Assembly (NCBI GenBank): GCA_963796275.1
Contig: CAWCKY010000004.1
Location: forward strand, 1,312,001 to 1,376,000
From: an uncultured Acidobacteriota bacterium
Lineage (GTDB): Bacteria > Acidobacteriota > Blastocatellia > RBC074
Reading direction: 5' to 3'
DNA: 64,000 bases
The stretch's first letter is position 1. Every line of letters begins with the position of its first letter. Shown here one piece after another: positions 5,445 to 59,751 of the stretch. The notes beneath the pieces were generated by a model that worked only from the letters and a program-made list of their open reading frames with translations, was not told the DNA's origin and did no database searches. The position numbers and the translations under genes were made by a program.

Positions 5445-5445
5445 G

Positions 5446-5805: not shown

Positions 5806-5922
5806 AAGGCGGCAATACGTGATATAAATTGGGGGCCCGAAGAATTTCGTGAGCTCTTTGACGATGTCATAAGCGAATTTGAATGTGACGTTTTATGGCA
5901 TTGTCTCAATATTTGTATCGAA

Positions 5923-39378: not shown

Positions 39379-39746
39379 AGTGCTAAAACTCAATAACAAA
39401 AGGAAAATATCGAACGATGCGTGATTATCCGCTACAAAAAACGCAAAATAACAATATGCACAAAACGAAAAAATTGCATCGCTCCCTCTTCCGTTTTTTG
39501 TTTTCCCTTCGCTACTCTTGTGATGTATCTTTTCGCTCAAATCGCTCAAAAAATTCGCCAACTTATTTTTTTACAACCCATTAGCGGCTACACTTGTTTT
39601 AAAAGTTGAGTTAGACTTTGCTTAAATGACCAGCCTATCACGCATTCGATTATTATCGAAATAAAACCAATTAAATAATCGATTGTGGGTAGGCTCTTAG
39701 CACATCGGATAATCCATGGGGTGTTCTAGACAGAAGGGAGGATGGT

Positions 39747-42700
39747 ATGGGCGACAACCTTAATGATAGCAGTCCAGATACCGCCGAACAAACGAGGGAA
39801 AAAAAAGATGGACACTTCTTCGTGGTTGGGCTCGGCGCATCTGCTGGAGGAATAAAGTCATTTAAGGAGTTTTTTTCGCACGTGCCTCCCCAGAGCGGAA
39901 TGGCATATGTCGTCATTCTGCACATGTCGCCTTCGCACGAGAGCAAACTGACGGAGATACTGCAACTGGCGACGAGGATTCCGGTGACACAGGTGTTAGA
40001 AACGGTCAAGATCGAACCTGACCACATCTATGTTATTCCGCCGAACCGGAGCCTCTCGATGAGAGACGGCAATTTAACGCTTTCGGAGATGACGCGGATC
40101 GAGGAGCGGCGCTCTCCCGTCGATATTTTTTTCCGCTCGCTCGCCGAGTCGAACGATTCACGAGCAGCCTGCGTTATTCTCTCGGGCACTGGGGCCAATG
40201 GCTCGATGGGTCTGAAACGAATCAAGGAGTTTGGCGGTATAGTTTTCGCTCAGGATCCGGCAGAAGCCGAGTACGACGATATGCCGCGCAATGCGATCGC
40301 CACCGGACTGGTCGACTTCATCTTGCCGGTGGCTCAGATGCCGGAGAAGATAATCGCATATAAGAATAACGTCGGCACGGTCCGCATTTCCAACGAGCCT
40401 TTGGAGCGCCACGAAACGGATGAGGCAGCACTGCGCGATATCTTCACTCAACTGAGGGTGCGGACCGGGCATGATTTCACCAACTATAAGCGGGCGACCA
40501 TGCTCCGCCGGATCGAGCGGCGGATCAACGTTTACGAGCTTTCCAACCTGCAGAGTTATGCCCACCTCATCCATGAGCATCCGGAAGAGGCGAGGTCGCT
40601 CCTCAGGGACTTGCTCATCAGCGTGACCAACTTCTTCCGCGACTCGGAGAGGTTTCAGGCGCTTGAAAAAAATATCATTCCGAAACTCTTTGAGAACAAA
40701 AGGGCCGGGGATAATGTGCGCGTCTGGGTCGCGGGCTGCGCCACTGGCGAAGAAGCCTACTCGATCGCGATGCTGCTGTCCGAATACGCCTCGGGTTCCA
40801 TCGATGCCCCGAACCTGCAAGTATTCGCGACCGACCTCGATGAAGAGTCGATCGCGGCGGCGCGCGAAGGATTCTACACAGATACCGAGGTGGCCGAGGT
40901 TTCGCCCGAGCGGCTGCGCCGGTTTTTTACCAAAGATGGAGAAGGTAACCGGGTGCGCCGGGAATTACGGGATATGGTGCTCTTTGCGGCGCATAACATC
41001 ATTAGAGACCCGCCGTTCTCGCAACTCAACCTCGTCTCCTGCCGCAACCTGCTCATCTATCTCAATCGGCCGGCGCAGGAGAAAGTGATGGAGGTTCTCC
41101 ACTTCGCCCTCCGCCCCGAAGGATATCTTTTCCTCGGGACCTCGGAGTCGATCAATGACGCCGCTCACCTCTTCATCACGACAGATAAAGATCATCGCAT
41201 CTATCAAAGTCGCGCAGTGACATCGCACATGTCATTTCCGCTCCCCAAAATGCCGCTTACCACGAGGATCGATCAGCGCCATAGAGAAGAGCGTGATGAG
41301 ACGCGTGCGCATGAGCGCCTGTCATACCTCGACCTGCATCTACGCCTGCTCGAGCAATTTGGCCCCCCCTCAGTCGTGGTCAATGAAAATTACGATATCG
41401 TACATTTATCGGAGCGGGCGGGTCAGTACATGCAATTCACCGGCGGCGAACCAACACACAACCTTCTCAGAGTCGTGCGCCCCGAACTGCGATTGGATTT
41501 GCGCACTGCTCTCTATCAAGCCGTGCAGAAACGAACCAACGTCGAGGCGCGCGGCTTGTACGTCCGCCTAAACAATCACACGCAGACTGTGAATCTGATA
41601 GTGCGTCCCATCATGCGCGATGACGATCCGGGGCGCGGCTTCATTCTCGTCATATTTGAGGAGGCGGACGAGACGGTGGGGAGTGAAGCCCCTCTCTCCA
41701 TAGAGGAGATCAGCCAGGCCGAACCGGTTGCTCACCAGCTTGAGGAAGAGCTTTTGCGCGTCAAAGCCCAGTTGCACGCGACCATCGAACAATACGAGAT
41801 ACAACATGAAGAATTGAAAGCCTCGAACGAAGAGCTACAGGCGATGAACGAGGAGTTGCGGTCGGCAGCCGAAGAGCTGGAGACGGGCAAAGAAGAGCTC
41901 CAATCGGTAAACGAGGAGTTGGTGACCGTCAATCAGGAGCTGAAGGTCAAGATCGAGGAACTCTCTCAGGCCAACAATGACTTTCAGAATCTGATGGCTT
42001 CGACCGGGATCGGCACCATCTTTCTCGACCGGTCTCTGCGCGTTAAACTCTTCACTCCGCGTGCTTGCGATATTTACAACCTGATCCCGGGCGATATTAA
42101 CCGCCCACTGATGGATATCACCACCAGACTCCTCTATGTCGACCTGATCGATGATGTTGAGCAGGTGCTCGATAAGCTGCATCCGGTCGAGCACGAAGTT
42201 CAGACGCGCGACGGAGGCTGGTATCTGGTGCGCCTGGTCCCTTATCGCACTAAGGAAGACCGCATTGAAGGGGCCGTCATTACTTTCATTGATATCACCT
42301 CGCGTAGGGCGGCGGCAGATACGCTGCGCCGCACGCGGGATGAGTTGGAGGTCCGCGTCAAAGAGCGCACGGGGGATTTGCAGACGGTGAATGATGCCTT
42401 GCAGAGTGAGGTCACTGAGCGCAGGGTCGCCGCGGACCGGGCGCGCGGATTGCTGCGGCGAATCATCACGGCTCAGGAGGATGAGCGTAGCCGCATCGCG
42501 CGCAACCTGCACGATCACCTGGGCCAGCAATTGACCGCGCTCCGGCTGCAGCTCGAAGCGATTAAAGATAAAGACGGCAACCGAAAGGAGCTCAATCAGT
42601 CGATTGAACAAGCGCAAATAATCGCCAAACAACTCGATATAGATGTGGATTTCCTCTCGTGGGAACTTCGTCCCGTTTCACTCGACCGCCTCCCTCTGGT

Positions 42701-43118
42701 GACGGCACTCTCCGATTTCGTGCTTGAGTGGTCGAAACATTTCAATATTCCGGCTGAATTTCATACTTCTGATATGGAGATAGGTCGTTTTCCTGAGAAT
42801 ATTGAAACCAATCTCTACCGCATCGCACAGGAGGCGCTCAATAACATCTATAAACATGCGCAAGCCACACTGGTGGACGTCATCTTCGAACGCAGGGACG
42901 ATCATGTCATGCTCATTATTGAAGATAACGGTCAGGGTTTCGATATGAACAAAGTGGCGGTTCAAGGTGGAGAAGAGAAAGGAATGGGATTGGTCGGCAT
43001 GCGTGAGCGAGTGGCCCTCATCGGAGGCACGCTCGAGGTTGAATCCCGATCGGGAGATGGCACAACCATCATCGTACGCGCACCTCTATCGTTATTAATA
43101 GAAAAACAAGGTGTATGA
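39747..43118 (+). CDS. CheB/CheR fusion with PAS domains and a HisKA_3-type histidine kinase
   Basis: GLGASAGG (CheB); WVAGCATGEEAYS and SCRNLLIY (CheR); NEEL coiled coil; ERSRIARNLHDHLGQ; QEALNN; EDNGQGF. Confidence 0.93.
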   Translation: MGDNLNDSSPDTAEQTREKKDGHFFVVGLGASAGGIKSFKEFFSHVPPQSGMAYVVILHMSPSHESKLTEILQLATRIPVTQVLETVKIEPDHIYVIPPNRSLSMRDGNLTLSEMTRIEERRSPVDIFFRSLAESNDSRAACVILSGTGANGSMGLKRIKEFGGIVFAQDPAEAEYDDMPRNAIATGLVDFILPVAQMPEKIIAYKNNVGTVRISNEPLERHETDEAALRDIFTQLRVRTGHDFTNYKRATMLRRIERRINVYELSNLQSYAHLIHEHPEEARSLLRDLLISVTNFFRDSERFQALEKNIIPKLFENKRAGDNVRVWVAGCATGEEAYSIAMLLSEYASGSIDAPNLQVFATDLDEESIAAAREGFYTDTEVAEVSPERLRRFFTKDGEGNRVRRELRDMVLFAAHNIIRDPPFSQLNLVSCRNLLIYLNRPAQEKVMEVLHFALRPEGYLFLGTSESINDAAHLFITTDKDHRIYQSRAVTSHMSFPLPKMPLTTRIDQRHREERDETRAHERLSYLDLHLRLLEQFGPPSVVVNENYDIVHLSERAGQYMQFTGGEPTHNLLRVVRPELRLDLRTALYQAVQKRTNVEARGLYVRLNNHTQTVNLIVRPIMRDDDPGRGFILVIFEEADETVGSEAPLSIEEISQAEPVAHQLEEELLRVKAQLHATIEQYEIQHEELKASNEELQAMNEELRSAAEELETGKEELQSVNEELVTVNQELKVKIEELSQANNDFQNLMASTGIGTIFLDRSLRVKLFTPRACDIYNLIPGDINRPLMDITTRLLYVDLIDDVEQVLDKLHPVEHEVQTRDGGWYLVRLVPYRTKEDRIEGAVITFIDITSRRAAADTLRRTRDELEVRVKERTGDLQTVNDALQSEVTERRVAADRARGLLRRIITAQEDERSRIARNLHDHLGQQLTALRLQLEAIKDKDGNRKELNQSIEQAQIIAKQLDIDVDFLSWELRPVSLDRLPLVTALSDFVLEWSKHFNIPAEFHTSDMEIGRFPENIETNLYRIAQEALNNIYKHAQATLVDVIFERRDDHVMLIIEDNGQGFDMNKVAVQGGEEKGMGLVGMRERVALIGGTLEVESRSGDGTTIIVRAPLSLLIEKQGV

Positions 43119-43130
43119 ACGAGGATTATC

Positions 43131-43784
43131 ATGCGCAAAATCCGCATCCTCATCGCTGAAGATCACGCAATGGTGCGCGAGGGGCTGAAGCTACTGATCG
43201 ATTCGCAACCGAATATGCAGGTAATCGGAGAGGCCGAGAACGGGCAGATTGCCGTCGCGCAGTCGCGGGAATTGATGCCAGACATCGTCCTGATGGACGT
43301 ATCGATGCCCGAGATGAATGGGTTAAAAGCGACCGAAAAACTCCGGCAGGAGTGCCCTCACATCAAGGTTTTGGCGCTCACCCGTCACCGGGACCAGGGG
43401 TTTTTGCAAGAGGTTATACGCGCCGGGGCTGCCGGCTACGTGCTCAAACAGAACACCGCTGCCGAACTGATCCACGCGATAGACGCGGTCGCTTCGGGGG
43501 GAAATTATCTGGATCCCGCCATCGCCGGAAAACTCATCGAGCGGTACGTCGGAGGACAGTCGAAAAACAACTCTGAGTCGCAGGGAGAGCTGAGTCCGCG
43601 CGAGGCTGAGGTCCTGCGCCTCATCGCATGGGGATACAGCAATAAGGAGATCGCCGGCCGCCTCGACATCAGCATTAAGACGGTCGAAGCGCACAAGGCT
43701 AATTCCAGCCGTAAACTGGGTTTGCATAGCCGAATCGATATAGTCCGTTTCGCCTTTCTGCAAGGCTGGCTGGAGGAGAATTAA
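43131..43784 (+). CDS. NarL/FixJ-family response regulator (REC plus LuxR HTH)
   Basis: AEDH, DIVLMDVSMP and GYVLK; LSPREAEVLRLIAWGYSNKEIA...KTVEAH. Confidence 0.95.
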   Translation: MRKIRILIAEDHAMVREGLKLLIDSQPNMQVIGEAENGQIAVAQSRELMPDIVLMDVSMPEMNGLKATEKLRQECPHIKVLALTRHRDQGFLQEVIRAGAAGYVLKQNTAAELIHAIDAVASGGNYLDPAIAGKLIERYVGGQSKNNSESQGELSPREAEVLRLIAWGYSNKEIAGRLDISIKTVEAHKANSSRKLGLHSRIDIVRFAFLQGWLEEN

Positions 43785-43871
43785 TTGATAATTGATAATG
43801 GATAATGGATAATTCGTATGAATTGTTGTCACTGTGTATACGAATTATCAATTATCACTTATCAATTATCC
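43782..43871. repeat. Hairpin element with TTGATAA heptamer arms (copy 2)
   Basis: Same GATAATTCGTA...TACGAATTATC core as 5313-5444. Confidence 0.75.
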
Positions 43872-43886
43872 ACTCTCTTCTGCCAC

Positions 43887-43915
43887 TGGCATACGAAGAT
43901 AGATCTGTGTAGAAT
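43887..43915 (+). promoter_or_regulatory. Putative sigma70 promoter (extended -10) for the FHA/kinase cluster
   Basis: TGGCAT-17 nt-TAGAAT with a TG-rich stretch just upstream of the -10. Confidence 0.45.
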
Positions 43916-44095
43916 GGCTAGTCGCTTAGCGGGCTTGCACACAACTTGCTGCTGCGAAAGCTGGTTACCGATTCCATCAGGTTTCATTACATCAATGAGT
44001 GCTGACGATCTCAACCGCAGGCAACAGCCGGCGCAGGCCCTGTTCGGAAATTCGAAGACCCCAGAGTTTTCGTGTAAGCGGAGGCTACTATAGCT

Positions 44096-44701
44096 ATGAT
44101 CCGATGTTACCATTGCGGAACCGATAACCTCGACGGTTCCGAGTATTGTGACGAGTGCGGAAAGAAGTTCACAGCTGCGTCGGCGAGAAATTTTTCAACG
44201 GTACCATCGCCCACGCAGACGGCGCCTCCACCTCCCCCCGCATTTACACGTGAATCGGTCCAACCGAAACCGGCGACCCCTTATACACCTGCGCCTCCAC
44301 CCGTTCCGGCTCCTGTCCCGCACGAAGGCCATCGGGTAGATCATCATCCTGAAGAGAATGGAGAGACGCATGTGCGCGCCCGGCTGATCATCCAGCGAGG
44401 CGGCAAGGTCGGCAAAGAATTTCCCATCCAGAGCGATGAATCGCTGATTGGACGATGGGACGCTGATGGAGGCACTTTCCCCGATGTCGACCTTGATCAA
44501 GATGACCCCGAAGCGAAAGTTTCGCGCCGGCATGCGCGGATACACTTTATGAACGAGCAATTTCTGATTGAAGACCTGGGCAGCACCAATGGGACGTTCG
44601 TTAACCGTGGCCCCCGCCTGCTGCCGGGCGACAAGCAACCGCTCAACAACGGTGATGAGATCATCGTCGGCAAAACATTTCTAAAATTTGTCCTGAGTTG
44701 A
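44096..44701 (+). CDS. Zinc ribbon, Pro-rich linker and FHA domain protein
   Basis: CYHCG...YCDECG; IGRWD...VSRRHARI...EDLGSTNGTFVN; GGAGG Shine-Dalgarno. Confidence 0.92.
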   Translation: MIRCYHCGTDNLDGSEYCDECGKKFTAASARNFSTVPSPTQTAPPPPPAFTRESVQPKPATPYTPAPPPVPAPVPHEGHRVDHHPEENGETHVRARLIIQRGGKVGKEFPIQSDESLIGRWDADGGTFPDVDLDQDDPEAKVSRRHARIHFMNEQFLIEDLGSTNGTFVNRGPRLLPGDKQPLNNGDEIIVGKTFLKFVLS

Positions 44702-44716
44702 AATCAAAGTGTTGAT

Positions 44717-46196
44717 ATGCCTTTTTGTCCAGATTGTGGAGCGCCCACGACAGTCGGTGACCCTTTTTGTGGTGAATGTGGCGCAAAGCAGGATAATTCA
44801 ATCACCTCCACGGTCGCCCCGCAGAGAGAGGCGCGCACTGGAGTTATTAGCATGACCGGACCCGGAAATACCCCTGCAGGAATCCAACTTGCCCCAGGAA
44901 CACTACTGGTCGAACGATATAAAATCGTCAAGCGCATCGGAGGCGGTGGTATGGGATCGGTCTACCTGGCCGAAGACCAGAATCTGGCTAACCGTCCGGT
45001 CGCTGTCAAAGAGATGATCGAAATGTTCGCCGATGAGAATGCGCGCGGGAAAGCCATCGAAGACTTCAAACGCGAAGCCGAACTTCTCGCCCGGCTCGAT
45101 CATCCTTCTATTCCGACCATCTATCAGTATTTCTTCGACATCAATCGCGGTCGCTATTACCTCGGTCATGAAATACATCGATGGCGGCGACCTGGTGGCG
45201 CGCCAGCGCGCCGCGGGAGGCAAGGTCGATGAGCCGATCGTCACCAAATGGGGAGTCGATACGTGCGACGTTCTCCAATACATCCACTCGCAGGCTCCGC
45301 CGATCATTTATCGCGACCTGAAACCCGCAAACCTTATGATCGACGCACGCGCCAATCGGGTTATGCTGGTAGATTTCGGGATCGCGCGTTTCGTCACCCC
45401 GACGCAAAAAGGAGTGACTGCCATCGGCACCATGGGTTATGCTCCACCCGAGCTTTTTGCGGGCAATGTCGAGCCACGTTCCGATATTTATTCGCTGGGA
45501 GCGACCATGTTTCATCTCCTGACGGGCCAAGACCCGCAGGACAATCCGCTTCTGATTTTCGATTTCGCCAAGAACCCAAAACCGCGGCAGATCAATCCAT
45601 CCATCTCTCCGCAGATGGAAGAGTTGGTCTGCCGCGCCGTGGAACACAAGCCCGAAAACCGATTTGCATCCGCGAAAGCGTTCGGCCAGGCGCTGCAGGA
45701 ACATCTGCGCCACATCCATAACGGCGACGAGTTCCCGGTCGTCAATGCGTTCGAGATGCAGCCCGCATATGGAGCTTTGTTAGTCTGCATCAACTGCGGG
45801 CGCGAACTGGCCGTTGACGATGTCTTCTGCGCCTATTGCGGATTCAGGCAACCGTCGAAGCGTACGACGGCGCGGCTCATCGTCCTGGGGACCAACGAAA
45901 TGTCCGCCCAGTTTCCGCTCAACAGCGATGGCGATAATCTCATCGGGCGGGTGGATCCTAACCGCGGGATAAGGCCGGAAGTTGATTTATCGAAATATGA
46001 CCCGGCGGCGCGCGTCTCGCGCCGTCACGCCAGGATTGTCGTGCAGGGCACTCAGTTCTTCATCGAAGATCTCGGAAGCGCCAACGGCACGGTCATCAAT
46101 GGCTCGACTAAACTCTCCCAGGGGAGCCGCCATCTTTTGTTGAGCGGTGACGAACTCAAACTCGGAGAGACGACGCTCAAGTTCGTGGTTTCGTAA
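44717..46196 (+). CDS. Soluble Hanks-type Ser/Thr kinase with two zinc ribbons and a C-terminal FHA; apparent +1 frameshift near 45164
   Basis: CPDCG..FCGECG; GGGGMGSVY, VAVKE, YRDLKPAN, DFG, GYAPPE; CINCG..FCAYCG; FHA SRRHA/GSANGT. Removing one G in CTCGGTCATG restores YYLVMKYIDGG. Confidence 0.9.
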
Positions 46197-46353
46197 GACT
46201 TGAAATTGCGAAAATGATTACCCATTCACCACAAAAGTCGCTGAGGGCAAAACAGAGCATAAAAGCAAGGAGCGGATACCGCGCGAATCTCCGCGGCATC
46301 CCCATTTTGTGTTATGTCTTGATTGTGATTTTTGCTGGTATTTCTCAAATTTG

Positions 46354-46869
46354 ATGATGTTTCAAGCGACACAAGAGAGAGGCGAATCTTCGTCCGTCCG
46401 GTCGAAAGCTCAGAGCGGAGGCAGGGGGCAGAAACCCAATTATAGTTATGTCACCCTGGCCAGCCTCGGGTTGCGGACCGGCGCGTTCCTGATCGACTAT
46501 ATTCTCACTATGTTGATATTGGCTATCCCTCTCGTGCTCGCCGTATATCTCAAGCGACGCCTGCTCGCCGTCACCGCTGCAAATATCGTTGTCACCCTTG
46601 GTTATCTCATCACGGCAGGTGCGATTTTATACAATCTGGTTTACTCATGCGCGAAGACCGGACAGAGTCTCGGTAAGAGCTTCATCGGCCTGCGCGTGGT
46701 GCGGCTCGATGGAAAGCCGATGGATTACAAGACTGCGCTTACGCGCCATCTCGTCGGCTATCCCGTCTCCGCTCTCTGCCTGGGTCTGGGAATGTTATGG
46801 ATGTTCTGGGACGGTAAACAGCAAGGCTGGCACGACAAACTGGCGAAGACGATAGTGATTAAGGACTGA
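46354..46869 (+). CDS. RDD family membrane protein
   Basis: RTGAFLID, GQSLGK..GLRVV and QGWHDKLAKT motifs. Confidence 0.92.
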   Translation: MMFQATQERGESSSVRSKAQSGGRGQKPNYSYVTLASLGLRTGAFLIDYILTMLILAIPLVLAVYLKRRLLAVTAANIVVTLGYLITAGAILYNLVYSCAKTGQSLGKSFIGLRVVRLDGKPMDYKTALTRHLVGYPVSALCLGLGMLWMFWDGKQQGWHDKLAKTIVIKD

Positions 46870-46873
46870 TCAT

Positions 46874-48661
46874 ATGACGATTACTTATTGTGGGAAATGT
46901 GGGTCCGCCAATGGAAACAGCGCCCGTTATTGTCGACAATGCGGAGTGGAGTTGAGCAGCCAGTCCGGATTCTCCCCGCAATCGACACCCCTCAATGTGG
47001 AATTTTTCCCGAAACCCGGAACGAGAATTGCTAGAAGAGATGCGCAAAAGAACACTTCCTCATCTCAATCGGAACAGATAGTGATCTCCGCGAAGGGATC
47101 GATCTCCGATGACTCATCCTCGAGCGCCATAGAACCGGGGGATGCGGTGCAGGATCCGGTGGCGATCAGCAAATCATTGCGGCGCGTGCGCGCTTCCGGT
47201 TCGTTGATACTGGAAGTCGCCTCCAAGAAAAAACAGGATGAGATGAACGCTATCATTGCAATGGCGATCGAGGGGTTTGAGAAACAGCCCGAACGACCTG
47301 AGGAGACGCAGCAAGCGCCCACATCGACCCGATCGAATCCGGCCTTTGGCGAGTCGAAACAGCGCCCGCTCCCGGCGGCCGGCGTCCAGGTAAAAATTCC
47401 CAACGCGACGCAACCGCTGGAAATGGTGATTTCAACCTTCCAGGCGGTCTGGCGCAAAGCCGTCGATCTGATGACGACCTCATCGCCCCTTTCGGATTCC
47501 GGCACCACTGCCTCGGGCGGAGGTCCCATATATCCCAACGGTCCCTCTATCGTCCTCGCTCAGGCGTCCGGACTGAATACCAAACGCAACCTCAGTCCCA
47601 AGCTGATAGCCGGATTGATCGTGATCGCGCTGCTGATCAGCGTCGGCTTCTACCAGCTTATTCGAGATCGGCTGCTCTCTCCCGACCAATCTCTTAGTTC
47701 GGAGCGGGAACTGCAGAGTGCGGAAGAACAGAGCGTGAGGTACGTTCAACTCGGCAAGAACGCAAGCGAGAAGGGGCAATACGATGCCGCGATCGCAAAT
47801 TTCAGGACGGCACTCTCGATGACTCCCAACAAGTCGGACCTGGTCTTCATGATCGCGCAGACGCACTCATCAGCCGGCCAGACCGAAGAAGCGTTGAGAA
47901 CATACAAGGCAGTGCTGCGGATCGATCCGGAACATCTGCAGGCGCGTTTGAATGTGGCCCTGATCCATCGAGCTCGGGGAAACTGGAACGCAGCTTATGA
48001 GGAGTTCAAGCGCATCATCGCGCTCGATCAGAACAGCGAGGAAGCGAACGTAGCGTTAACGGCTATCGAAGCATATCAGGCAGACAGCGCGCAACCGCCG
48101 CCGCCCATCGTTACCACTGCGCGGCGTTCACGCGCGACATCGAGGAAAACTCTCGTACTTCCGCCGGCCACCACGGCGCGATCACAGCTAACGTTCTTTT
48201 CACCGGAAGTTCCCGCCACGCAGATCATCCGGCCCCCCGCCGCTTTGGGCAGCGATAACAAGGAAGACAACCCTGACCCGCGGGGCATCGCGGAATCCCG
48301 TAGGAATCTCGGTCTCCGTTTTCTCCAGGTTAGATTATATCGCGCTGCGATCAACGAATTTTTGGCCACGCTCCGGCTGACGCCGGACGATAAAGACATC
48401 TATTATTTCATGGCAACGGCTTTTTCCGGACTCGGGCAGCCTGAACAGGCGCACGATTACTACAAGCGCGTCGACCGAGGCCAGTACCTGCAAATCTCGC
48501 AAACCGGGGCGCGCAAGACCGAGAAGGCGGCGCGCGAAGCAGCGAAGAGGCGCGCAGAAATGTTGAAGAATGACCTCGAGAGCGAACAACAGAGTGAAGT
48601 CAGACAAGTGCCCGGAGGGAGCAATCCCTTCAGTAAAGCGCTCATGAATATCTTTAAATAA
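46874..48661 (+). CDS. Zinc ribbon, single TM and TPR protein
   Basis: CGKCG...YCRQCG; TM segment LIAGLIVIALLISVGFY; several TPRs. Confidence 0.88.
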   Translation: MTITYCGKCGSANGNSARYCRQCGVELSSQSGFSPQSTPLNVEFFPKPGTRIARRDAQKNTSSSQSEQIVISAKGSISDDSSSSAIEPGDAVQDPVAISKSLRRVRASGSLILEVASKKKQDEMNAIIAMAIEGFEKQPERPEETQQAPTSTRSNPAFGESKQRPLPAAGVQVKIPNATQPLEMVISTFQAVWRKAVDLMTTSSPLSDSGTTASGGGPIYPNGPSIVLAQASGLNTKRNLSPKLIAGLIVIALLISVGFYQLIRDRLLSPDQSLSSERELQSAEEQSVRYVQLGKNASEKGQYDAAIANFRTALSMTPNKSDLVFMIAQTHSSAGQTEEALRTYKAVLRIDPEHLQARLNVALIHRARGNWNAAYEEFKRIIALDQNSEEANVALTAIEAYQADSAQPPPPIVTTARRSRATSRKTLVLPPATTARSQLTFFSPEVPATQIIRPPAALGSDNKEDNPDPRGIAESRRNLGLRFLQVRLYRAAINEFLATLRLTPDDKDIYYFMATAFSGLGQPEQAHDYYKRVDRGQYLQISQTGARKTEKAAREAAKRRAEMLKNDLESEQQSEVRQVPGGSNPFSKALMNIFK

Positions 48662-48668
48662 GCGAAAA

Positions 48669-50408
48669 GTGCCACGACTGATTGTCAGAGCTACACCATC
48701 ACACGGCGACTCCGTCGTCGAATTGTCGAGATTGCGAACAACTATTGGCCGCTCGGCGCGCAATGACCTATGCGTGGAAGACCCGTTCGCATCGCGACTC
48801 CACGCGGAGGTGCGGAGACGCGGCGACAATTTCTGGATAAGTGACCTGGGGAGCGCCAACGGCACGACGGTCAACGGAGCGCGTCTGACGAATGTCCCGG
48901 CACAACTCCACGATCGCGATATCGTTAGCATCGGTGAAACCGAGATCGAATATTCTGAACGCGCCGATACCGCCCCGGCACGTGGGCGCACGAGCATACT
49001 CTATTCCGATTCGCCCATCGCCCCCACCCCCGAAGCGACGATCTCGGCGAGTTCCCGCAATTCGGCTGCCAACCTCCTCTCCTCTCTCGAAGTCTCGCAG
49101 CGGACGCAGGTGAGGGCCGCCGGCGCAGTCCACGCCGTCCAGGATGATACGCTAGCGGTCATCAGCGATGTCAGCGTGAAGCTCCTCTCGCCTCTCTCAC
49201 TCGATGAAACTTTGAAACAGGTTCTGGAATACGTCTTCAAGGCTGTGCCCGCTGACCGCGGGTACGTTATGCTGCTCGAAACTCCAGAGAACAACGCAAA
49301 GGCCGAGCCTGAACTGGTCTGTAAGGCGATGAAGACCCGAACGGCGACCACCGAGACGGAGACCGACGTCCAGCTCAGCCGCTCGATCACCGAGCAGGTG
49401 ATAAAACAGGGCATCTCCGTGCTCACCTCTGATGCGCTGCAGGATCCGCGATTTCAGGAGCGCAGTTCGGTCATGCTCAGCGGTATCCATTCAGTAATGG
49501 CCGTGCCGCTAGCAGTCGAGAGCCGTATCTCAGGGATGATCTATGTCGACAATCCGCTGCACACCAATCGCTTCACCAAGCGCGACCTACAATTGCTGAC
49601 CTACATTGCCGGAGTCGCTGCCATCCGCATCGAAAATATGAGGTTGCTCGAAGTACAGCAGGAACAGAAGCGGCTGGCTAACGAGCTGGCCTTGGCCAGT
49701 GAGATCCAACTGCGCCTGCATCCCGAGATCCCGCCGTCGCTTCCCGGCTATGAACTGATCGGCCTAAGTTTCCCCTGCTATGAGGTGGGCGGCGATTATT
49801 ACGACTTCATCGAGCAGCGCGATGGACGCTGCGTAATCGCACTCGGCGATGTCTCCGGCAAAGGAACGGCGGCTGCTCTACTCATGTCATCAGTACACGC
49901 CGCAGTGCGAGCGCACACGAGGACGAGGCTTTCCGCCGGTGAAGTCGTCAGCGAAATCAATCTGTATATCTACGACAATACGCCGGCGAACCGCTTCGTC
50001 ACACTCTTTTACAGCGAACTCGATCCCCGCACGCACCAGTTGACCTATATCAACGCGGGCCATAATTCTCCGCTCCTCGTTCGCGCGAGCGGAGAAGTAA
50101 CGCGTCTCGACATCGGCGGATTCCCTCTGGGGATAACCGAGTTCGGCGATTATCGCGAAGGGTGGGTGGAACTCGAGATGGGAGACGTATTGGTCATATA
50201 CTCCGACGGCGCGAGCGAGAGCCTCAACGAGCAGGGCGAGGAGTTCGGCGAGGCCCGTTTGATCGATCTCGTCCAGAAGAACCGCGGCCGGACAGCCGCC
50301 GGGCTGCGTGATCGCATTGACGAAGCGCTCACCAAATTCGTCGGAAAAGCCAAGACCGTCGATGACCTAACACTCGTGATATTAAAACGAAAGAGCCAGG
50401 ATGAATGA
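48669..50408 (+). CDS. FHA-GAF-SpoIIE (PP2C/RsbU-like) phosphatase
   Basis: IGRS...SRLHA...GSANGT; GAF SVMAVPL..GMIYVD; VGGDYYD, GDVSGKG, NAGH, YSDG and DDLT. Confidence 0.93.
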   Translation: MPRLIVRATPSHGDSVVELSRLRTTIGRSARNDLCVEDPFASRLHAEVRRRGDNFWISDLGSANGTTVNGARLTNVPAQLHDRDIVSIGETEIEYSERADTAPARGRTSILYSDSPIAPTPEATISASSRNSAANLLSSLEVSQRTQVRAAGAVHAVQDDTLAVISDVSVKLLSPLSLDETLKQVLEYVFKAVPADRGYVMLLETPENNAKAEPELVCKAMKTRTATTETETDVQLSRSITEQVIKQGISVLTSDALQDPRFQERSSVMLSGIHSVMAVPLAVESRISGMIYVDNPLHTNRFTKRDLQLLTYIAGVAAIRIENMRLLEVQQEQKRLANELALASEIQLRLHPEIPPSLPGYELIGLSFPCYEVGGDYYDFIEQRDGRCVIALGDVSGKGTAAALLMSSVHAAVRAHTRTRLSAGEVVSEINLYIYDNTPANRFVTLFYSELDPRTHQLTYINAGHNSPLLVRASGEVTRLDIGGFPLGITEFGDYREGWVELEMGDVLVIYSDGASESLNEQGEEFGEARLIDLVQKNRGRTAAGLRDRIDEALTKFVGKAKTVDDLTLVILKRKSQDE

Positions 50409-51636
50409 ACTGAAACAGATCATCTTCATACCGCTCCTCTCACTTCTGCCATGCGTCTTGTGGCTGTGGTATTTCTCGAGCCGCAGTCTGTACAAGCGTC
50501 CATCGATTCGCGTCCTGGGTGTGACATTCATCCTCGGAGCGGTGGCCACGGTCCCTGCTCTCTTTCTCAACCTGGAAGGCCAGAAGTTTTTCCGCGAGCA
50601 TCTCGGCGAAAGCCAGCTCTCGCATATTCTCGTGCTTTTATTCATCGTCGGGCCGGTGGAAGAGCTGGTCAAACTTCTGGTGGTTTATCTCTACGCTTAT
50701 CGAAAGCCTCAATTCGACGAACCGCTCGATGGTGTAATCTTCAGCGCCACCGCGGCGCTGGGATTCGCTGCGGTAGAGAATGTGGTCTATCTGGGACAGC
50801 ACGATCCAATGCTCGTTCTGTTGCGCGGCCCGCTTTCGAACCCGGGTCACGCGCTCTTTTCGGCGCTCTGGGGATTGAGCCTGAGCCGTGCGAAGGCGGC
50901 GCCCAATCTGGTGCGCACGCGTTTCCCGATCATCGCCGGCGGTCTGCTGCTTGCTTCGGTGCTTCATTCTCTCTTCGATATCCTACTTATTGCATCATCG
51001 AGATGGAGCATCGTCTTTTTCGGAATACTCGTGGCGGTAATGGCAGGCCTCTTCTTCTGGGTGCGTTCTCGCATCAGATTCCATACGGAAACATCGCCGC
51101 ACCGGGAAGGGACGCTCCTGATGCCGCTCTGGCGCTATTGCCAGGAATGTGGGGCGAGGGGAACGGCTGGCATGCGCTGCACGAAATGCGGCGGCTTCAT
51201 CCCGGAGCCCGACGAATTGCAGCTCTGTCCTGTCTGTTCGACAATGCAGCGACCGGGCGCAAAATTCTGTTCGCACTGCGGAGCCAACATCAAACTACCG
51301 GTCAGGGAGAACCTGGCCACGCGCCCCCACTTCGTCTCGGTCACGCCTGAAGGGCAAGAGCGCATCGCCTACATCATCAACCATAGCGATATAATGATCG
51401 GCCGCACCTTGAATAACGGGTTCGTCATCGAACACCCATCCGTCTCCAAGCGACACGCCCGCATCGTCGTCGAAAATAACGACTACGCGCTCTACGATCT
51501 GGGAAGCAGCAACGGCACGTTCGTCAACGGAAAAAGGATTATGGAGACGAAGCTGCAGGATGGATGCGAGGTGCGGTTCGGCCGCGCACATTATGTCTAT
51601 CGATCACACAAGAGCATGGCGGAAAAAACTGCCTAA
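50401..51636 (+). CDS. PrsW-family intramembrane protease fused to a double zinc ribbon and FHA
   Basis: GPVEELVK, GFAAVEN, PGHALFS and LHSLFD (PrsW motifs); four CxxC pairs; IGR...SKRHA...GSSNGT. Overlaps the upstream stop. Confidence 0.9.
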   Translation: MNELKQIIFIPLLSLLPCVLWLWYFSSRSLYKRPSIRVLGVTFILGAVATVPALFLNLEGQKFFREHLGESQLSHILVLLFIVGPVEELVKLLVVYLYAYRKPQFDEPLDGVIFSATAALGFAAVENVVYLGQHDPMLVLLRGPLSNPGHALFSALWGLSLSRAKAAPNLVRTRFPIIAGGLLLASVLHSLFDILLIASSRWSIVFFGILVAVMAGLFFWVRSRIRFHTETSPHREGTLLMPLWRYCQECGARGTAGMRCTKCGGFIPEPDELQLCPVCSTMQRPGAKFCSHCGANIKLPVRENLATRPHFVSVTPEGQERIAYIINHSDIMIGRTLNNGFVIEHPSVSKRHARIVVENNDYALYDLGSSNGTFVNGKRIMETKLQDGCEVRFGRAHYVYRSHKSMAEKTA

Positions 51637-51687
51637 CCGGAATTCGCCCACAAGAAAAATAAATTAAAAAAAGAAGAGTTTCTGCGT

Positions 51688-52024
51688 TTGGAGTTCCGCG
51701 TTTACGCGGTCTTTCCTCTCCGCACTTGATTTTCCTGACCACCGGAAGGCGCAACTCCCAACATTGAGATCGCGTTCGGAGTTCCGCGTTTACGCGGTCT
51801 TTCCTCTCCGCACTTGATTTTCCTGACTGCCGGAAGGCGCAACTCCCAACATTGAGATCGCGTTCGGAGTTCCGCGTTTACGCGGTCTTTCATCTCCGCA
51901 CTTGATTTTCCTGATCGCCGGAAGGCGCAACTCCCAACATTGAGATCGAGTTCGGAGTTCCGCGTTTACGCGGTCTTTCATCTCCGCACTTGATTTTCCT
52001 GACTGCCGGAAGGCGAACACCCAA
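51688..52024. repeat. Tandem REP-doublet array B: 4 units, 88 bp period
   Basis: GGAGTTCCGCGTTTACGCGGTC at 51690, 51778, 51866, 51954. The partner REP is degenerate (GCCGGAAGGCGCAACTCC). Confidence 0.9.
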
Positions 52025-52147
52025 CTCTCTCGCCTTCGCCTTTTGATTTCTCCTCTACTCTGTTTTACTATCGCGGCATCGTTAATCAGCTGACGACGGC
52101 CACCCCTAGCAGATTCATTTACGGCCATCCCACCTCTGAGGAAACCA

Positions 52148-55100
52148 ATGAACAGTTCTACCATATTGCTGTGCCTATCTCTGTTCTTCTGTCACCTGGA
52201 CGACCTAGATCACGCCAGCTTCGAGGGTTTAGTGACCGAATCTTCAAACAATGCCATCGTCGGAGCGCGTGTGACGCTGCACCACATCGGTAACAACAGC
52301 GAGCGATCGGTGATCACCGATCGGGAAGGCCATTATCGCTTCCCGAAGCTCGCCGCGGGAACATATGTCCTGCGCGTCGAAGCGACGGGATTTCAGAGCG
52401 TGCGATACGAAGGGATCGAGACGATCGCGGGGGTCACACAGCGCCGCGACTTTCGTCTGCAGCCGGCGGTCATCGAAGCTCAGATCACTATCGATGCCTC
52501 GACCGATACATCGATGATCGACACATCGCGGACGGTCGTTGGAGGGACCATTACCGCACAAGAGATCGAGGTGCTTCCCGTTGAAACACGCAACCCGCTC
52601 GACCTCGTCTACGCGTTGGCAGGCACATCGCCGCCGGCGTTCAGCGACCGCGATCTGGCGGAAGGAGACCAATCGGATAACTTCCAGCAAACGCCCGAAG
52701 AGGCCGGCGTATTTTCGCTCAACGGAGGGACGCCTTTTTCCAACAACATAACCATCGAGGGTATGGACAATAACGATGACCGCGGCGCTCGAGAGAGAAT
52801 CAATCTCTCTTCGCATTCCGTCGAAGAGGTACAGGTGATAACCAACCAGTTTTCATCCGAATACGGAAGGGCCTCGGGCGGGCGCGTCAACCTGCGAATA
52901 CGCGGAGGATCGAATAATCTCCGCGGTGAAGCCTTCTATTACTTGCGCGAAGAAAGCCTCAATGCCAATGACTTCAGACGCAATGCCGATCCGGCGCGCG
53001 GCGTTCGCCTCCCCTATCAAAACCATAACCCGGGCGCCAAAATCGGCGGGCCGATCATTCCTGACAGACTTTTTCTCTTCGGCGCTTATGAGTATGACTA
53101 CATCTACGACCGCGCGGAGATCTCGGCACTCCTTCCCGTCGAGACCAACCCCATATTTCCGCTGCCCAGACCTACCGGCGCCAATCTGGGGAGCACCTCG
53201 CATAACAGGATGGGCATCCCTGTCGATGTAAATGGAGGCGCGGCCGTCGGTCTCTACGACCTGCAGGTCACGACGCCACGCACGGCACACACTTTCCAAT
53301 CGCGAGCCGATTTCAAACCGGGAGCGCAGCATGACATATTCGCGATCTACACGCTGGCGCGCAATGTCGATGAGCGCGGCTTCCCCGGCGGGCGGCGCAC
53401 GCTGGACACAATCAGGCGGACCGGCAGAAGCAGCCAATCCATCGCATTTTCAGGGACCTCGGTCGTCACATCCTGGCTGATCAATAGCGCAAAATTTCAA
53501 TTCTCACGGCTAGCACCTGCCGACGCCCCTTCGGATAATGGCCCTGTCATCCTGATCGAGACAGACGATCCGCGCGATGTGGTCGGGCAATCTAGCGCGA
53601 ATCCCTTCACCAGGAGCGGGAGATTGACGGCGGGATCGAGCACGCTCGGCGGAACCGACCGCCGCGAAGAGCGCTATCAGATACAGGAGACGCTTAATTA
53701 CATCCGCGGTGGCCATACCTGGCGCCTCGGCGGAGACTTCCAGAAGATCCGCTCGCGCTTTATAGATATCTCCGATGCGACCGGAACCTTCTCATTCGCG
53801 ACTCCGGCCGATTTTCTCGCCAGCACGCCATCTCGGTACCAGCACCGTTTCAACACCGGTTCGGAACTGCGTAATAGCTATACCGCCATATTTCTGCAGG
53901 ATGATTGGCGGGTTCGCCCACATCTCACTCTCTCGTTGGGGTTACGCTGGGACAATGAAACTATCCTCAAAGACCGCAACAATTTCGGCCCCCGGGTATC
54001 ATTCGCCTGGGATCCCTTCCATACCAGCAGAACCGTGGTGCGCGGAGGTTTTGGGATTTTTTATAACAGAGTTTTGCTGCGCACGCTCGACGATTTTCTT
54101 TTGACCTCGAACACGATCGCGATCGATACGAACAACGAAGCAGCGGAACACCTCTTGACCGAATTGCAATTTCCGAATGCGCTTGCGGCGGATGACCCGA
54201 GAGTCGGCCAGTTGGGAGTGCGTGAATCCGGATTTCTGCGCCGCATTGGCGAAGGCTTCCGCATTCCTGAAAGTTACCAGGCCGCCCTCGGCTTTGAACG
54301 CGAATTCGGAGGCGAATACAAAATAGGGTTAAATTATGTATTCAGTCGCGGTCTTCATTTGTGGCGCGAGATCAATGCGAATGCGCCGCGTCTGCCCGTG
54401 GGATACCGCGATTTCACCGAATATTTGACCGCTCGCGAATTTGATAACACGCGCGACCCGATAACCCGCCGCCGTCCGATCACGGCGACGGGGAACGCCG
54501 ATACCGTACGGTTCAGCCTCAGCCAGGCCCCGAGCCAGGTCGTCAACGAAAACGGCAAGAGGATCGTAGTTATAGGCTTGAACAATACATCGACCAGCAA
54601 CCAATCGATATCGACCGCGGGAGCCCGCGCCGCCATCCGCAATCTCCGCCCTGATCCCACGGTAACTCAGGTAGAGGAACTGCAATCGCGCGGCAACAGC
54701 TACTATCACGGGCTGAATATCGAATTGCAGCGGCGGTTCATCGACCGGGTTTTCTTCCGAGCTTCATACACTCTCAGTAAGTTGATCGACGATGGAGTGG
54801 TCAATACATCCTCACCGCTAGTAAGCGGAAACTTCGTCCGCGAGAGAGCGCCGAGCCTGATGGACGCACGCCATCGGGTTACATTCAGCGGCAGTTATCT
54901 GATCCCACGATATTTCGGCGGAATCAATCTATCGGGGACTTTCACACTTTATTCGGCGCGCCCATTCTCGATCGGGATCAATGGAAATGACAGAAATCTC
55001 GATGACGTGAATAATGACCGGCCGATTTTTGGGGGCGAGGCGGATGAGATCATCTGGAGAGGCACCAGCGAGCCGCTTGACCAGGCTTTAGTCAACGGAT

Positions 55101-55381
55101 TTTCGCTACCTGTGATCGGCACGTCCGGCAATCTGCCGCGGAATGCGGGACGAGGGCCGAGGTCATACACACTCAATTTACGCCTATCGCGCGAGTTCGT
55201 CTTCACTGAAACCCGGACCGCCGAGATACAGGTGGAGGCATTCAATCCATTCAATACGACGGTTTATAGTTTCGGCAGCGAGTTTGTCGATTACACGCCC
55301 GCGAGACTGGGAGACTTCCTGACGCCTCCGCGAACGGTGAAACCGAGAACGATGCGAGTGGGATTGAAGGTGAAGTTTTAA
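52148..55381 (+). CDS. Oar-like TonB-dependent receptor with N-terminal carboxypeptidase-regulatory-like domain
   Basis: Signal peptide; GHYRF..L..GTY.L.VEA.GF; VQVITNQFSSEYGRASGG; FLQDDWRV..LTL.LGLRWD; terminal VKF. Confidence 0.92.
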   Translation: MNSSTILLCLSLFFCHLDDLDHASFEGLVTESSNNAIVGARVTLHHIGNNSERSVITDREGHYRFPKLAAGTYVLRVEATGFQSVRYEGIETIAGVTQRRDFRLQPAVIEAQITIDASTDTSMIDTSRTVVGGTITAQEIEVLPVETRNPLDLVYALAGTSPPAFSDRDLAEGDQSDNFQQTPEEAGVFSLNGGTPFSNNITIEGMDNNDDRGARERINLSSHSVEEVQVITNQFSSEYGRASGGRVNLRIRGGSNNLRGEAFYYLREESLNANDFRRNADPARGVRLPYQNHNPGAKIGGPIIPDRLFLFGAYEYDYIYDRAEISALLPVETNPIFPLPRPTGANLGSTSHNRMGIPVDVNGGAAVGLYDLQVTTPRTAHTFQSRADFKPGAQHDIFAIYTLARNVDERGFPGGRRTLDTIRRTGRSSQSIAFSGTSVVTSWLINSAKFQFSRLAPADAPSDNGPVILIETDDPRDVVGQSSANPFTRSGRLTAGSSTLGGTDRREERYQIQETLNYIRGGHTWRLGGDFQKIRSRFIDISDATGTFSFATPADFLASTPSRYQHRFNTGSELRNSYTAIFLQDDWRVRPHLTLSLGLRWDNETILKDRNNFGPRVSFAWDPFHTSRTVVRGGFGIFYNRVLLRTLDDFLLTSNTIAIDTNNEAAEHLLTELQFPNALAADDPRVGQLGVRESGFLRRIGEGFRIPESYQAALGFEREFGGEYKIGLNYVFSRGLHLWREINANAPRLPVGYRDFTEYLTAREFDNTRDPITRRRPITATGNADTVRFSLSQAPSQVVNENGKRIVVIGLNNTSTSNQSISTAGARAAIRNLRPDPTVTQVEELQSRGNSYYHGLNIELQRRFIDRVFFRASYTLSKLIDDGVVNTSSPLVSGNFVRERAPSLMDARHRVTFSGSYLIPRYFGGINLSGTFTLYSARPFSIGINGNDRNLDDVNNDRPIFGGEADEIIWRGTSEPLDQALVNGFSLPVIGTSGNLPRNAGRGPRSYTLNLRLSREFVFTETRTAEIQVEAFNPFNTTVYSFGSEFVDYTPARLGDFLTPPRTVKPRTMRVGLKVKF

Positions 55382-55471
55382 ACGGGGTGACCAAACTAAG
55401 CCGTAAGCGGTCAATTCCCGGCACTTCTACCCCGGGAACTGACCATAATCACAGCCGCGTAGCTTTAATGT

Positions 55472-56332
55472 TTGGAGTTCCGCGTTTACACTGTCTTTAT
55501 CATTTCGGAAGATTACCGGACCGCCTGAAGGCGGAACTCCGAACTTCGCGTTTGGAGTTCCGCGTTTACGCGGTCTTTATCATTCAGAAGATTTCCGGAC
55601 CGCCTGAAGGCGGAACTCCGAACTTCGCGTTTGGAGTTCCGCGTTTACGCGGTCTTTATCATTTCGGAAGATTTCCGGACCGCCTGAAGGCGGAACTCCG
55701 AACTTCGCGTTTGGAGTTCCGCGTTTACGCGGTCTTTATCATTCAGAAGATTTCCGGACCGCCTGAAGGCGGAACTCCGAACTTCGCGTTTGGAGTTCCG
55801 CGTTTACGCGGTCTTTATCATTCAGAAGATTTCCGGACCGCCTGAAGGTGGAACTCCGAACTTCGCGTTTGGAGTTCCGCGTTTACGCGGTCTTTATCAT
55901 TTCGGAAGATTTCCGGACCGCCTGAAGGCGGAACTCCGAACTTCGCGTTTGGAGTTCCGCGTTTACGCGGTCTTTATCATTCAGAAGATTTCCGGACCGC
56001 CTGAAGGTGGAACTCCGAACTTCGCGTTTGGAGTTCCGCGTTTACGCGGTCTTTATCATTCGGAAGATTTCCGGACCGCCTGAAGGCGGAACTCCGAACT
56101 TCGCGTTTGGAGTTCCGCGTTTACGCGGTCTTTATCATTCAGAAGATTTCCGGACCGCCTGAAGGTGGAACTCCGAACTTCGCGTTTGGAGTTCCGCGTT
56201 TACGCGGTCTTTATCATTTCGGAAGATTTCCGGACCGCCTGAAGGCGGAACTCCGAACTTCGCGTTTGGAGTTCCGCGTTTACGCGGTCTTTATCATTCG
56301 GAAGATTTCCGGACCGCCAAAAGCGGTACTCG
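55472..56332. repeat. Tandem REP-doublet array C: 11 units, 79-80 bp period
   Basis: GGAG starts at 55474, 55554, 55633, 55713, 55792, 55871, 55951, 56030, 56109, 56188, 56268. The first and last units are degenerate. Lies between convergent genes. Confidence 0.92.
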
Positions 56333-56361
56333 CGTCCCAAAGGAATTGGCCACAAAACTCA

Positions 56362-58917: not shown

Positions 58918-58944
58918 GGCTTTAGGGTTTCATGGCTTCTGTTT

Positions 58945-59700: not shown

Positions 59701-59751
59701 AAACAGTTTTTAGTTTTCAGGCGCAGATACCGGAAATCCGGAGTCAAAAAC

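Follow-up and report, generated by a model that had tools for sequence, protein, structure and literature searches.

We describe here a cluster of six genes (g1 to g6) in a stretch of DNA from an uncultured Acidobacteriota bacterium (GenBank assembly GCA_963796275.1, contig CAWCKY010000004.1, positions 1,312,001 to 1,376,000 of the forward strand); "the window" refers to this whole stretch of 64,000 nucleotides. The genes encode, in order, a zinc-ribbon FHA adaptor, a Ser/Thr kinase, an RDD-family membrane protein, a tetratricopeptide repeat (TPR) protein, a PP2C-type phosphatase, and a PrsW-family protease that itself carries an FHA domain. We put the chances at about even that they constitute an operon that is conserved and vertically inherited among Blastocatellia-type Acidobacteriota and that encodes a membrane-tethered phosphothreonine (pThr) signalling complex. 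The composition of the operon suggests that intramembrane cutting is switched by phosphorylation.

Gene content of the cluster

All of the signalling genes between 44096 and 51636 lie on the + strand, and the opposite strand has no gene there. The intergenic gaps are 15 bp, 112 or 157 bp (for a GTG or an ATG start of g3, respectively), 4 bp and 7 bp, and g5 and g6 overlap by 8 bp. Over g1 to g6, Pfam recognized four FHA domains and six zinc ribbons, which confirmed the domain calls of an earlier prediction made from the letters alone (the original prediction). The common orientation and the spacing given in that prediction also held, its 157-bp gap being the one for the ATG start, except that g2 is not one open frame in the window (see below). 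NCBIfam provided no equivalog-level name for any of the six genes. Coordinates and domain evidence are collected in Table 1.

Table 1. Features of the cluster and of its immediate flanks (TRF, Tandem Repeats Finder; aa, amino acids; TM, transmembrane).
Feature	Position	Strand	Evidence
Upstream non-coding region, ~310 bp	43785..44095	+	sigma-70-like match TTGATA-17-GATAAT at 43785-43813, 10/12 positions, consensus only
g1: zinc ribbon, Pro/Thr-rich linker and FHA; adaptor, 201 aa	44096..44701	+	Pfam FHA 3e-16, Zn_Ribbon_1 2.6e-4
g2: zinc ribbon, Hanks-type Ser/Thr kinase, zinc ribbon and FHA; interrupted	44717..46196	+	Pfam Pkinase in both pieces, FHA 4.3e-14
g3: RDD-family integral membrane protein	46309 (GTG, 186 aa) or 46354 (ATG, 171 aa)..46869	+	Pfam RDD 2.3e-26
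g4: zinc ribbon, ~200-aa Ser/Thr-rich linker, one TM helix and two TPR blocks, 595 aa	46874..48661	+	Pfam TPR families, zinc ribbon
g5: FHA, GAF and SpoIIE-type PP2C, 579 aa	48669..50408	+	Pfam SpoIIE 6.6e-50, FHA 3.7e-20, GAF 4.2e-14
g6: PrsW-family protease, SPHREGT linker, double zinc ribbon (8 Cys) and FHA, 411 aa	50401..51636	+	Pfam PrsW-protease 1.7e-39, DZR 3.3e-5, FHA 1.6e-20
88-bp tandem repeat, 3.9 copies	51684..52025	+	TRF, 95% matches; directly 3' of the g6 stop codon

The cluster is conserved as a bounded unit

We compared the cluster with its relatives, taking one genome per species and using an alignment of eight full-length g6 proteins as the query; the best 80 of 198 loci were analyzed. 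Gene content was counted by tblastn and by blastp at the level of open reading frames (ORFs) with the window proteins. With at least 8 kb of upstream sequence, 48 of 53 loci carried g1, both kinase halves, g3, g4 and g5 in the same order before g6, an arrangement far beyond chance. Considered singly, g1 occupied the same position in 52 of these 53 loci and the RDD gene, g3, was found in all 53. The phosphatase gene, g5, was immediately upstream of g6 in 65 of the 67 loci that had at least 2.4 kb upstream.

When all flanking ORFs were clustered, family frequencies did not exceed 13 of 40 loci on the upstream side and 11 of 59 on the downstream side; the commonest families were a pseudopilin-like protein, a TPR protein, Lnt and an ABC ATPase. 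Two neighbors in the window were considered as members and rejected. Not one of the 53 loci had, in the 9 kb upstream, a homologue of the CheB-CheR-PAS histidine kinase or the LuxR-type response regulator that precede the cluster in the window. The TonB-like outer-membrane gene that lies downstream was present after g6 at just 13 of 52 loci. Because no flanking family is widely common, the upstream pair has no homologues in those 9 kb and the outer-membrane gene is infrequent, we conclude that the unit is bounded: it consists of a five-gene core (g1, g2, g3, g5 and g6) and a clade-specific sixth gene, g4, and nothing else. Conservation of the neighborhood had been put forward with the original prediction as a check on it, and the cluster withstood that check.

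The titles of the best 80 loci name Acidobacteria(ota), Blastocatellia or Blastocatellales in 67 cases, Heliobacteriaceae or Heliomicrobium in 12, and simply "bacterium" in one. The 12 contigs with Heliobacteriaceae or Heliomicrobium titles (L004, L009, L013, L018, L019, L022, L023, L030, L060, L064, L066 and L068) have the same gene order, encode g6 proteins 52-77% identical to that of the window and stand among Blastocatellia sequences; their titles look like taxonomy label errors. At locus L076, three unrelated genes (3620-6416) lie between the kinase gene and a gene for an RDD protein that begins with a zinc ribbon: a Uma2-family putative endonuclease, a membrane protein of no family and a weak BD-FAE match. 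The gene right after g6 at this locus appeared methyltransferase-like by eye.

A protein search with g6 found 642 relatives at E <= 0.001 in a set clustered at 90%. Among the matches listed (120 of the 642), which were 64-100% identical to g6, PrsW and FHA were present in all and DZR in most, and the named relatives came from metagenome-assembled genomes (MAGs) of Acidobacteria, Blastocatellia or Chloracidobacterium; the Chloracidobacterium MAG protein P0105 shares 67% identity with g6. In a library clustered at 50%, just two other representatives spanned the full length of g6 (P0122, 59%; P0123, 46%). The next matches there were many proteins of ~290 aa with PrsW and a double zinc ribbon, lacking the FHA domain and 30-40% identical, which make up the wider family around g6.

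Catalytic and pThr-binding residues are retained

Hanks-type kinases are recognized by a Gly-rich loop, a VAIK lysine, an HRD-type loop, and DFG and APE motifs. The g2 kinase domain (PF00069) has all of these, as GGGGMGSVY, VAVKEM, YRDLKPAN, DFG and GYAPPE, each at least 95% conserved in 56 orthologues. The metal-binding aspartates of SpoIIE/PP2C phosphatases lie in equally recognizable motifs, and the g5 domain (PF07228; 170.2 bits against a cut-off of 25) carries GGDYYDF, GDVSGKG, SDG and DD(L)T, which are conserved in 67 sequences.

FHA domains contact pThr through their GR, SxxH and NG loops. The four FHA domains of the cluster (PF00498) matched Pfam with E-values of 4.3e-14 to 1.6e-20, and all four have conserved GR, S(R/K)RH or SRLH, and NGT; pThr binding is predicted for each. 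In g1, the FHA half and the zinc-ribbon cysteines are conserved in 56 sequences. The linkers behind the zinc ribbons are enriched in Ser and Thr (a fraction of 0.16-0.24, versus 0.13 over all proteins), that of g1 is also Pro-rich, and they are otherwise poorly conserved. The conservation of the catalytic and predicted pThr-binding residues across orthologues suggests that the kinase, the phosphatase and the protease (see below) of this family are apparently active.

The kinase gene of the window is split by a one-base insertion

In the window, g2 is divided into two ORFs, 44717-45232 (frame 2; zinc ribbon and kinase N-lobe) and 45033-46196 (frame 0; C-lobe, zinc ribbon and FHA). In Pfam, the N-terminal piece covers positions 1-69 of the Pkinase profile and the C-terminal piece positions 74-257. 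When aligned against 56 intact orthologues (~494 aa), the two pieces met exactly at ...GRYYL / VMKYIDGGDL... with zero residues lost. The sequence is CTCGGTC in the window and CTGGTC in six relatives, which places a one-base insertion near 45162-45165. The two kinase halves share a single uninterrupted frame in 56 of 57 related loci, and this is not the case in the window. The circuit of writer, reader and eraser that the original prediction described therefore stands as far as the key residues of its modules, which are conserved across orthologues; in the window itself, the writer gene is frameshifted.

A second broken kinase copy was found at L074, on a long-contig MAG, with a different break point, and g4 of the same locus is split as well. 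The double split of the kinase and TPR genes at L074 suggests indel errors in that assembly. Programmed frameshifting in g2 was considered and rejected, as 56 of 57 relatives encode the kinase in one frame and the sole other broken copy is broken elsewhere.

The writer of the window is thus either a sequencing error or a dead gene, and the system is either intact with an error in its sequence or very recently disabled. We favor a sequencing or assembly indel, or a very recent mutation, because the break is clean, the other five genes are intact, the relatives are in frame and L074 is broken at another place. The competing account, which we regard as possible and clearly the less probable, is that the frameshift is real and the system has recently been inactivated in this genome, with the writer lost and the remaining genes drifting or taken over by another kinase. 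The one-base insertion itself speaks for this account, as does a further kinase/PP2C/vWA module 5 kb downstream on the opposite strand, of which the Pkinase-TPR gene (56362-58917) would be a candidate replacement. Inactivation sits less well with halves that abut without a lost residue, with the lack of any further lesion and with five intact companion genes. The frame is also kept at 56 of the 57 related loci, and the only other split copy, L074, has its own break point and a split g4, resembling an assembly indel error of long contigs. The contig of the window is itself 1.64 Mb, a length that we infer to be typical of long-read assemblies.

A PrsW-family protease with a fused FHA domain

PrsW-family proteases are marked by EExxK, His and HxxxD-type motifs. 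The g6 protein belongs to this family (PF13367; 135.9 bits against a cut-off of 23.5) and has seven predicted TM helices. Residues E87, E88, K91, E126, N127, H150 and H189 were invariant both in 61 orthologues and in 16 of the shorter PrsW-DZR relatives, which are 27-36% identical; in the 61 orthologues D193 was at least 90% conserved, and the eight zinc-ribbon cysteines were invariant. Between the last helix and the zinc ribbons is a segment, SPHREGT, of which S232, P233, H234 and T238 were invariant in 61 of 61 sequences. The shorter relatives that lack an FHA domain have SPFR at this position. An FHA domain was fused to PrsW in all 79 full-length g6 orthologues recovered.

We modeled g6 with AF2 (mean predicted local distance difference test score, pLDDT, 81.3). 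The model consists of seven long helices, two small ribbons and a beta-sandwich. The C-terminal sandwich matched the FHA structures of GarA, FhaA, OdhI and DgcB, some of them phosphopeptide-bound, at E ~1e-7 and with TM-scores to the target of 0.72-0.87. A fold search with the whole g6 model gave only FHA-domain matches in the ranks shown, and none for the membrane domain.

The fusion has a precedent. PrsW domains joined to FHA and Zn-ribbon domains, the same fusion as in g6, were noted by Zhang, de Souza, Anantharaman, Iyer and Aravind in 2012 and proposed to be "signaling peptidases" that act upon signals detected by the domains to which they are joined (PMC3482391). That account is one sentence long, and the passages of the paper that concern PrsW mention no operon, kinase, phosphatase, RDD or TPR partner. 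No description of the operon was found in the open-access literature searched. The earlier statement that no system of this composition had been described can therefore be kept for the operon; it does not extend to the PrsW-FHA/Zn-ribbon fusion, which had been in print since 2012 (PMC3482391).

The same paper bears on a further explanation, a role of the cluster in anti-phage defense or conflict, with the Ser/Thr kinase sensing infection and the protease carrying out the response. PrsW domains do occur in polymorphic toxin systems (PMC3482391), and the kinase pieces matched the PADLOC models PD-T4-6 and mad6, with E-values down to 8.4e-38. These are matches of a generic kinase domain only; the other five proteins matched no PADLOC family, and no full defense system was recognized. 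No toxin domain is fused to g6, and the passages on PrsW in the 2012 paper set the FHA/Zn-ribbon forms apart from the toxin-linked ones (PMC3482391). The stable, vertical arrangement in 48 of 53 species-level genomes, at g6 identities of 45-83%, is also unlike patchy defense islands, and we hold a role in defense to be very improbable.

The RDD protein and the question of output

The g3 protein is a member of the RDD family (PF06271; 93.2 bits against a cut-off of 24.1), with hydrophobic segments and with R41, D48 and D161 invariant in 61 sequences. Its AF2 model (pLDDT 87.4) had no match at E <= 0.001 in a fold search against the PDB; the best were peroxisomal ubiquitin-ligase membrane subunits, at E 0.024. 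Complex prediction for the PrsW domain of g6 (residues 1-240) and the RDD domain of g3 (residues 28-171) gave scores of 0.07 and 0.03 against a mark of 0.32, in a run without controls.

RDD proteins have been reported in two roles. SppI of B. subtilis acts as an inhibitor of the membrane protease SppA, to which it binds (PMC7568657), and another RDD protein has been reported to be a cation/proton antiporter (PMC5996927). The original prediction listed the RDD protein correctly and left it without a role, although it is a core gene and SppI is a known inhibitor of a protease (PMC7568657).

The cluster may be a genuine kinase, phosphatase and FHA operon whose output is not proteolysis. The PrsW and RDD proteins would then be mainly membrane anchors or targets, with the RDD protein or unlinked proteins carrying out the actual output, a process of the envelope or of transport. 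The FHA domains would have the same kind of role as those of the actinobacterial FhaA/FhaB-PstP-PknB module. The presence of the RDD gene in 53 of 53 loci, together with the reported antiporter (PMC5996927) and protease inhibitor (PMC7568657), is consistent with such an output, as is the lack of an encoded substrate in the cluster. The top NCBIfam matches of the FHA domains, OdhI, FhaB and TagH, are likewise non-proteolytic regulators, all of them below cut-off. A scaffold role for PrsW is harder to reconcile with catalytic residues that are invariant in the 61 orthologues and 16 shorter relatives, which argues for an active enzyme, or with an FHA domain fused to the protease itself in 79 of 79 full-length orthologues recovered. 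We consider an output other than proteolysis unlikely. The protease-centered reading is supported by two precedents, the published PrsW fusions (PMC3482391) and the SppI-SppA pair (PMC7568657).

The TPR protein has an invariant juxtamembrane motif

The single hydrophobic helix of g4 spans residues 238-265, and the linker that precedes it has a Ser and Thr fraction of 0.22 (versus 0.13 overall); the TPR blocks are probably periplasmic. Outside the TPRs, the sole invariant stretch of the protein is [LV]-[AVM]-x-[AT]-S-G-[LF] (xLAxASGL), which reads VLAQASGL at 226-233 in the window. All 58 orthologues contained the motif 3-12 aa before the TM helix, even where overall identity was as low as 24-26%. 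A strict pattern matched 48 of the 58; one position is Val or Met in the other ten, and a pattern that allows for this captured all. Among 3309 other ORFs from the same loci, the motif occurred in only 4. A search with residues 1-285 of g4 found 34 relatives, all of them TPR proteins and the named ones from Blastocatellia or Acidobacteria, and an ESM Atlas search with the same residues returned no usable match.

PrsW has been reported to cleave RsiW between Ala168 and Ser169 (PMC8767453). The correspondence between this cut and the Ala-Ser of the g4 motif is an analogy, which we treat as a lead only.

Proposed mechanism and the points against it

Two of the proteins, g3 and g6, are integral to the membrane, and g4 makes three where it is present. 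In the mechanism that we propose, the soluble kinase would phosphorylate Thr and Ser residues in the Ser/Thr/Pro-rich linkers, long and disordered, that follow the zinc ribbons (those of g1 and g4 and of its own N-terminus), and possibly also SPHREGT of g6. The four FHA domains would read these marks and bring the kinase, the adaptor and the phosphatase to the membrane proteins PrsW and RDD. An occupied FHA domain on PrsW would switch proteolysis or pick its substrate, and the RDD protein may be a membrane partner or brake of PrsW, by analogy with SppI and SppA. Where present, the TPR protein would provide a periplasmic input; we rank it first among candidate substrates on account of its single invariant stretch, the juxtamembrane xLAxASGL. 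The GAF-regulated PP2C would erase the marks and reset the system in response to a cytoplasmic ligand.

A fully specified form of this mechanism is pThr-gated intramembrane proteolysis, which would be a new control of regulated proteolysis in bacteria. Here the kinase would mark the disordered cytoplasmic stalk of the TPR protein, or of the zinc-ribbon RDD protein in lineages without g4, and the FHA domain fused to PrsW would capture the mark and position the substrate. PrsW would then cut xLAxA|SGL to leave a zinc-ribbon fragment ending in an Ala-rich, degron-like tail. The RDD protein would restrain PrsW until phosphorylation, the GAF-PP2C would set the threshold, and the six zinc ribbons would serve as a shared docking code for the complex. 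We think it distinctly unlikely that this scheme is right in its entirety.

Several observations weigh against our reading. SpoIIE-family phosphatases are best known from partner switching on STAS proteins, and not from acting on the substrates of Hanks kinases. The kinase is split in the window. The NCBIfam equivalog for PrsW (NF033739, the RsiW site-1 protease) scored g6 at 104.4 bits, below its cut-off of 225, and g6 is, by this sequence measure, not an orthologue of B. subtilis PrsW. Pfam found no sigma factor, anti-sigma factor, substrate or DNA-binding output encoded in g1 to g6. The earlier claim of a self-contained circuit whose output is regulated proteolysis was overstated in this respect, and all of the mechanistic steps above are drawn from domains and conservation.

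The arrangement itself has exceptions. At L042, g3 to g6 are kept, and DUF11 and unknown genes replace g1 and g2 next to the cluster; at L035 and L038 there is no g5 next to g6, and a ClpA/B-like and a HYR-domain gene are found upstream of g6 instead. The TPR gene is missing in 4 of 53 loci (L076 and L078-L080, with g6 proteins 45-47% identical to that of the window), where the RDD protein begins with a zinc ribbon. Because of this absence, g4, which the original prediction took to be the sensor or substrate, cannot have that role universally, and it stands outside the conserved core. Finally, the presumed location of the g4 motif is cytoplasmic, versus an extracytoplasmic one for the reported RsiW cut (PMC8767453).

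Comparison with known systems

We compared the cluster with systems that share some of its parts. As in the PrsW-RsiW-sigma W pathway of B. subtilis, there is a PrsW domain with the Glu-Glu-x-x-Lys and His residues (in g6), and an adjacent bitopic protein, g4, with a presumed cytoplasmic N-terminus, a probably extracytoplasmic C-terminal domain and an invariant Ala-Ser in its motif. Unlike that pathway, the cluster has no extracytoplasmic function (ECF) sigma or anti-sigma domain. The double zinc ribbon and the FHA domain of g6 are absent from B. subtilis PrsW, and phosphorylation would serve here as the trigger that antimicrobial peptides provide for B. subtilis PrsW.

The actinobacterial FhaA-FhaB(FipA)-PstP-RodA-PbpA-PknA-PknB cluster is likewise an operon with a Hanks kinase, a PP2C and several FHA proteins. 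Phosphothreonines close to the membrane recruit its FHA proteins, and the FHA model of g6 matches the FhaA and GarA structures. It differs in that no PASTA, RodA/FtsW or penicillin-binding protein domain was found in g1 to g6 or in adjacent genes, so that the present cluster is not a member of this class. Here, moreover, the kinase is soluble, the phosphatase is of the SpoIIE type with a GAF domain, and PrsW, RDD and six zinc ribbons are added.

The threonine phosphorylation pathway PpkA-PppA-Fha1 of the T6SS (type VI secretion system) is a compact kinase, PP2C and FHA switch. Another compact switch operon is DRA0331-0334 of Deinococcus radiodurans (vWA-kinase-FHA-FHA-PP2C), in which an FHA domain is reported to be fused to the phosphatase, as in g5 (10.64898/2026.01.23.701218). 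In contrast to both, our unit includes no vWA or T6SS gene, and its output would be tied to a protease.

Like SppA and SppI, g6 and g3 are a membrane protease and an RDD membrane protein encoded together, the likeness here being one of gene linkage only (53 of 53 loci). The protease in that pair is the serine protease SppA, and no kinase, phosphatase or FHA domain takes part. A partner-switching module was also considered; no STAS or RsbW-like domain was found in g1 to g6 or in the flank families common to the relatives. As judged from its domains, the cluster resembles the Hanks kinase/PP2C/FHA switches, joined to a PrsW-type protease, and is a member of none of the compared systems.

Flanking sequences and neighboring genes

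The region from 43785 to 44095 was taken as the putative promoter region of g1, its promoter match being one of consensus only. A 7-bp repeat, TAATTGA, occurs 4.7 times at 43782-43814 (TRF), where it overlaps the best sigma-70-like match 5' of g1, and may be a binding array for a regulator. A 91-aa ORF in the same region (43818-44093) was rejected as a gene, as it has no Pfam or NCBIfam match, has an odd, Cys-rich translation and lies inside the AT-rich, repeat- and promoter-like sequence.

Each unit of the 88-bp array that follows g6 has a GC hairpin and then a T-rich run, terminator-like by consensus only, at 51696, 51784, 51872 and 51960, and the array is the probable 3' end of the operon. 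A second, related tandem array is found at 55470-56318 (79 bp, 10.7 copies); matches within the two arrays are 95-96%. Both share a core consisting of the hairpin CCGCGTTTACGCGG followed by TCTTT, as well as a longer inverted pair, GGAGTTCCGC ... GCGGAACTCC, and together they flank the TonB-like outer-membrane gene (52148-55381). A 152-aa ORF at 55387-55845 was rejected as a gene; it has no family match and falls within the 79-bp array. An Rfam scan of 43000-56500 returned just two sub-threshold matches to plant miRNAs (28 bits, against 80-95), which we took as chance.

Beyond the second array, on the minus strand, is a separate Ser/Thr module (56362-60549) consisting of Pkinase-TPR (851 aa, 56362-58917), PP2C_2 (251 aa, 58945-59700) and vWA (265 aa, 59752-60549) genes, which resembles known vWA-kinase-PP2C operons. 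On the other side of the cluster, the + strand at 39747-43784 encodes a 1123-aa fusion of CheB methylesterase, CheR methyltransferase, PAS, HisKA_3 and HATPase domains and then a LuxR-type response regulator, ending 312 bp before g1. Further upstream, on the minus strand, a 1115-aa ORF (36214-39561) with no Pfam family at E <= 1e-5 adjoins the gene for an 1826-aa protein (30606-36086) that is like GH94 phosphorylases of the cyclic-glucan/cellobionic type.

Implications

The known triggers of regulated intramembrane proteolysis in bacteria are the binding of a ligand, damage to the envelope and an earlier cut at site 1, and modules of Ser/Thr kinase, PP2C and FHA proteins control enzymes, secretion and cell-wall synthesis. 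A pThr reader fused to a protease, and provided with its own kinase and phosphatase, would, if our reading is true, connect the two kinds of signalling directly. The PrsW-zinc-ribbon and RDD proteins, which are very common and unexplained, would thereby acquire a testable role, and the invariant xLAxASGL and SPHREGT segments offer precise residues for mutation. To our knowledge, the Acidobacteriota, an abundant soil phylum, have almost no experimentally studied regulatory pathways; the operon described here would give a handle on their signalling.

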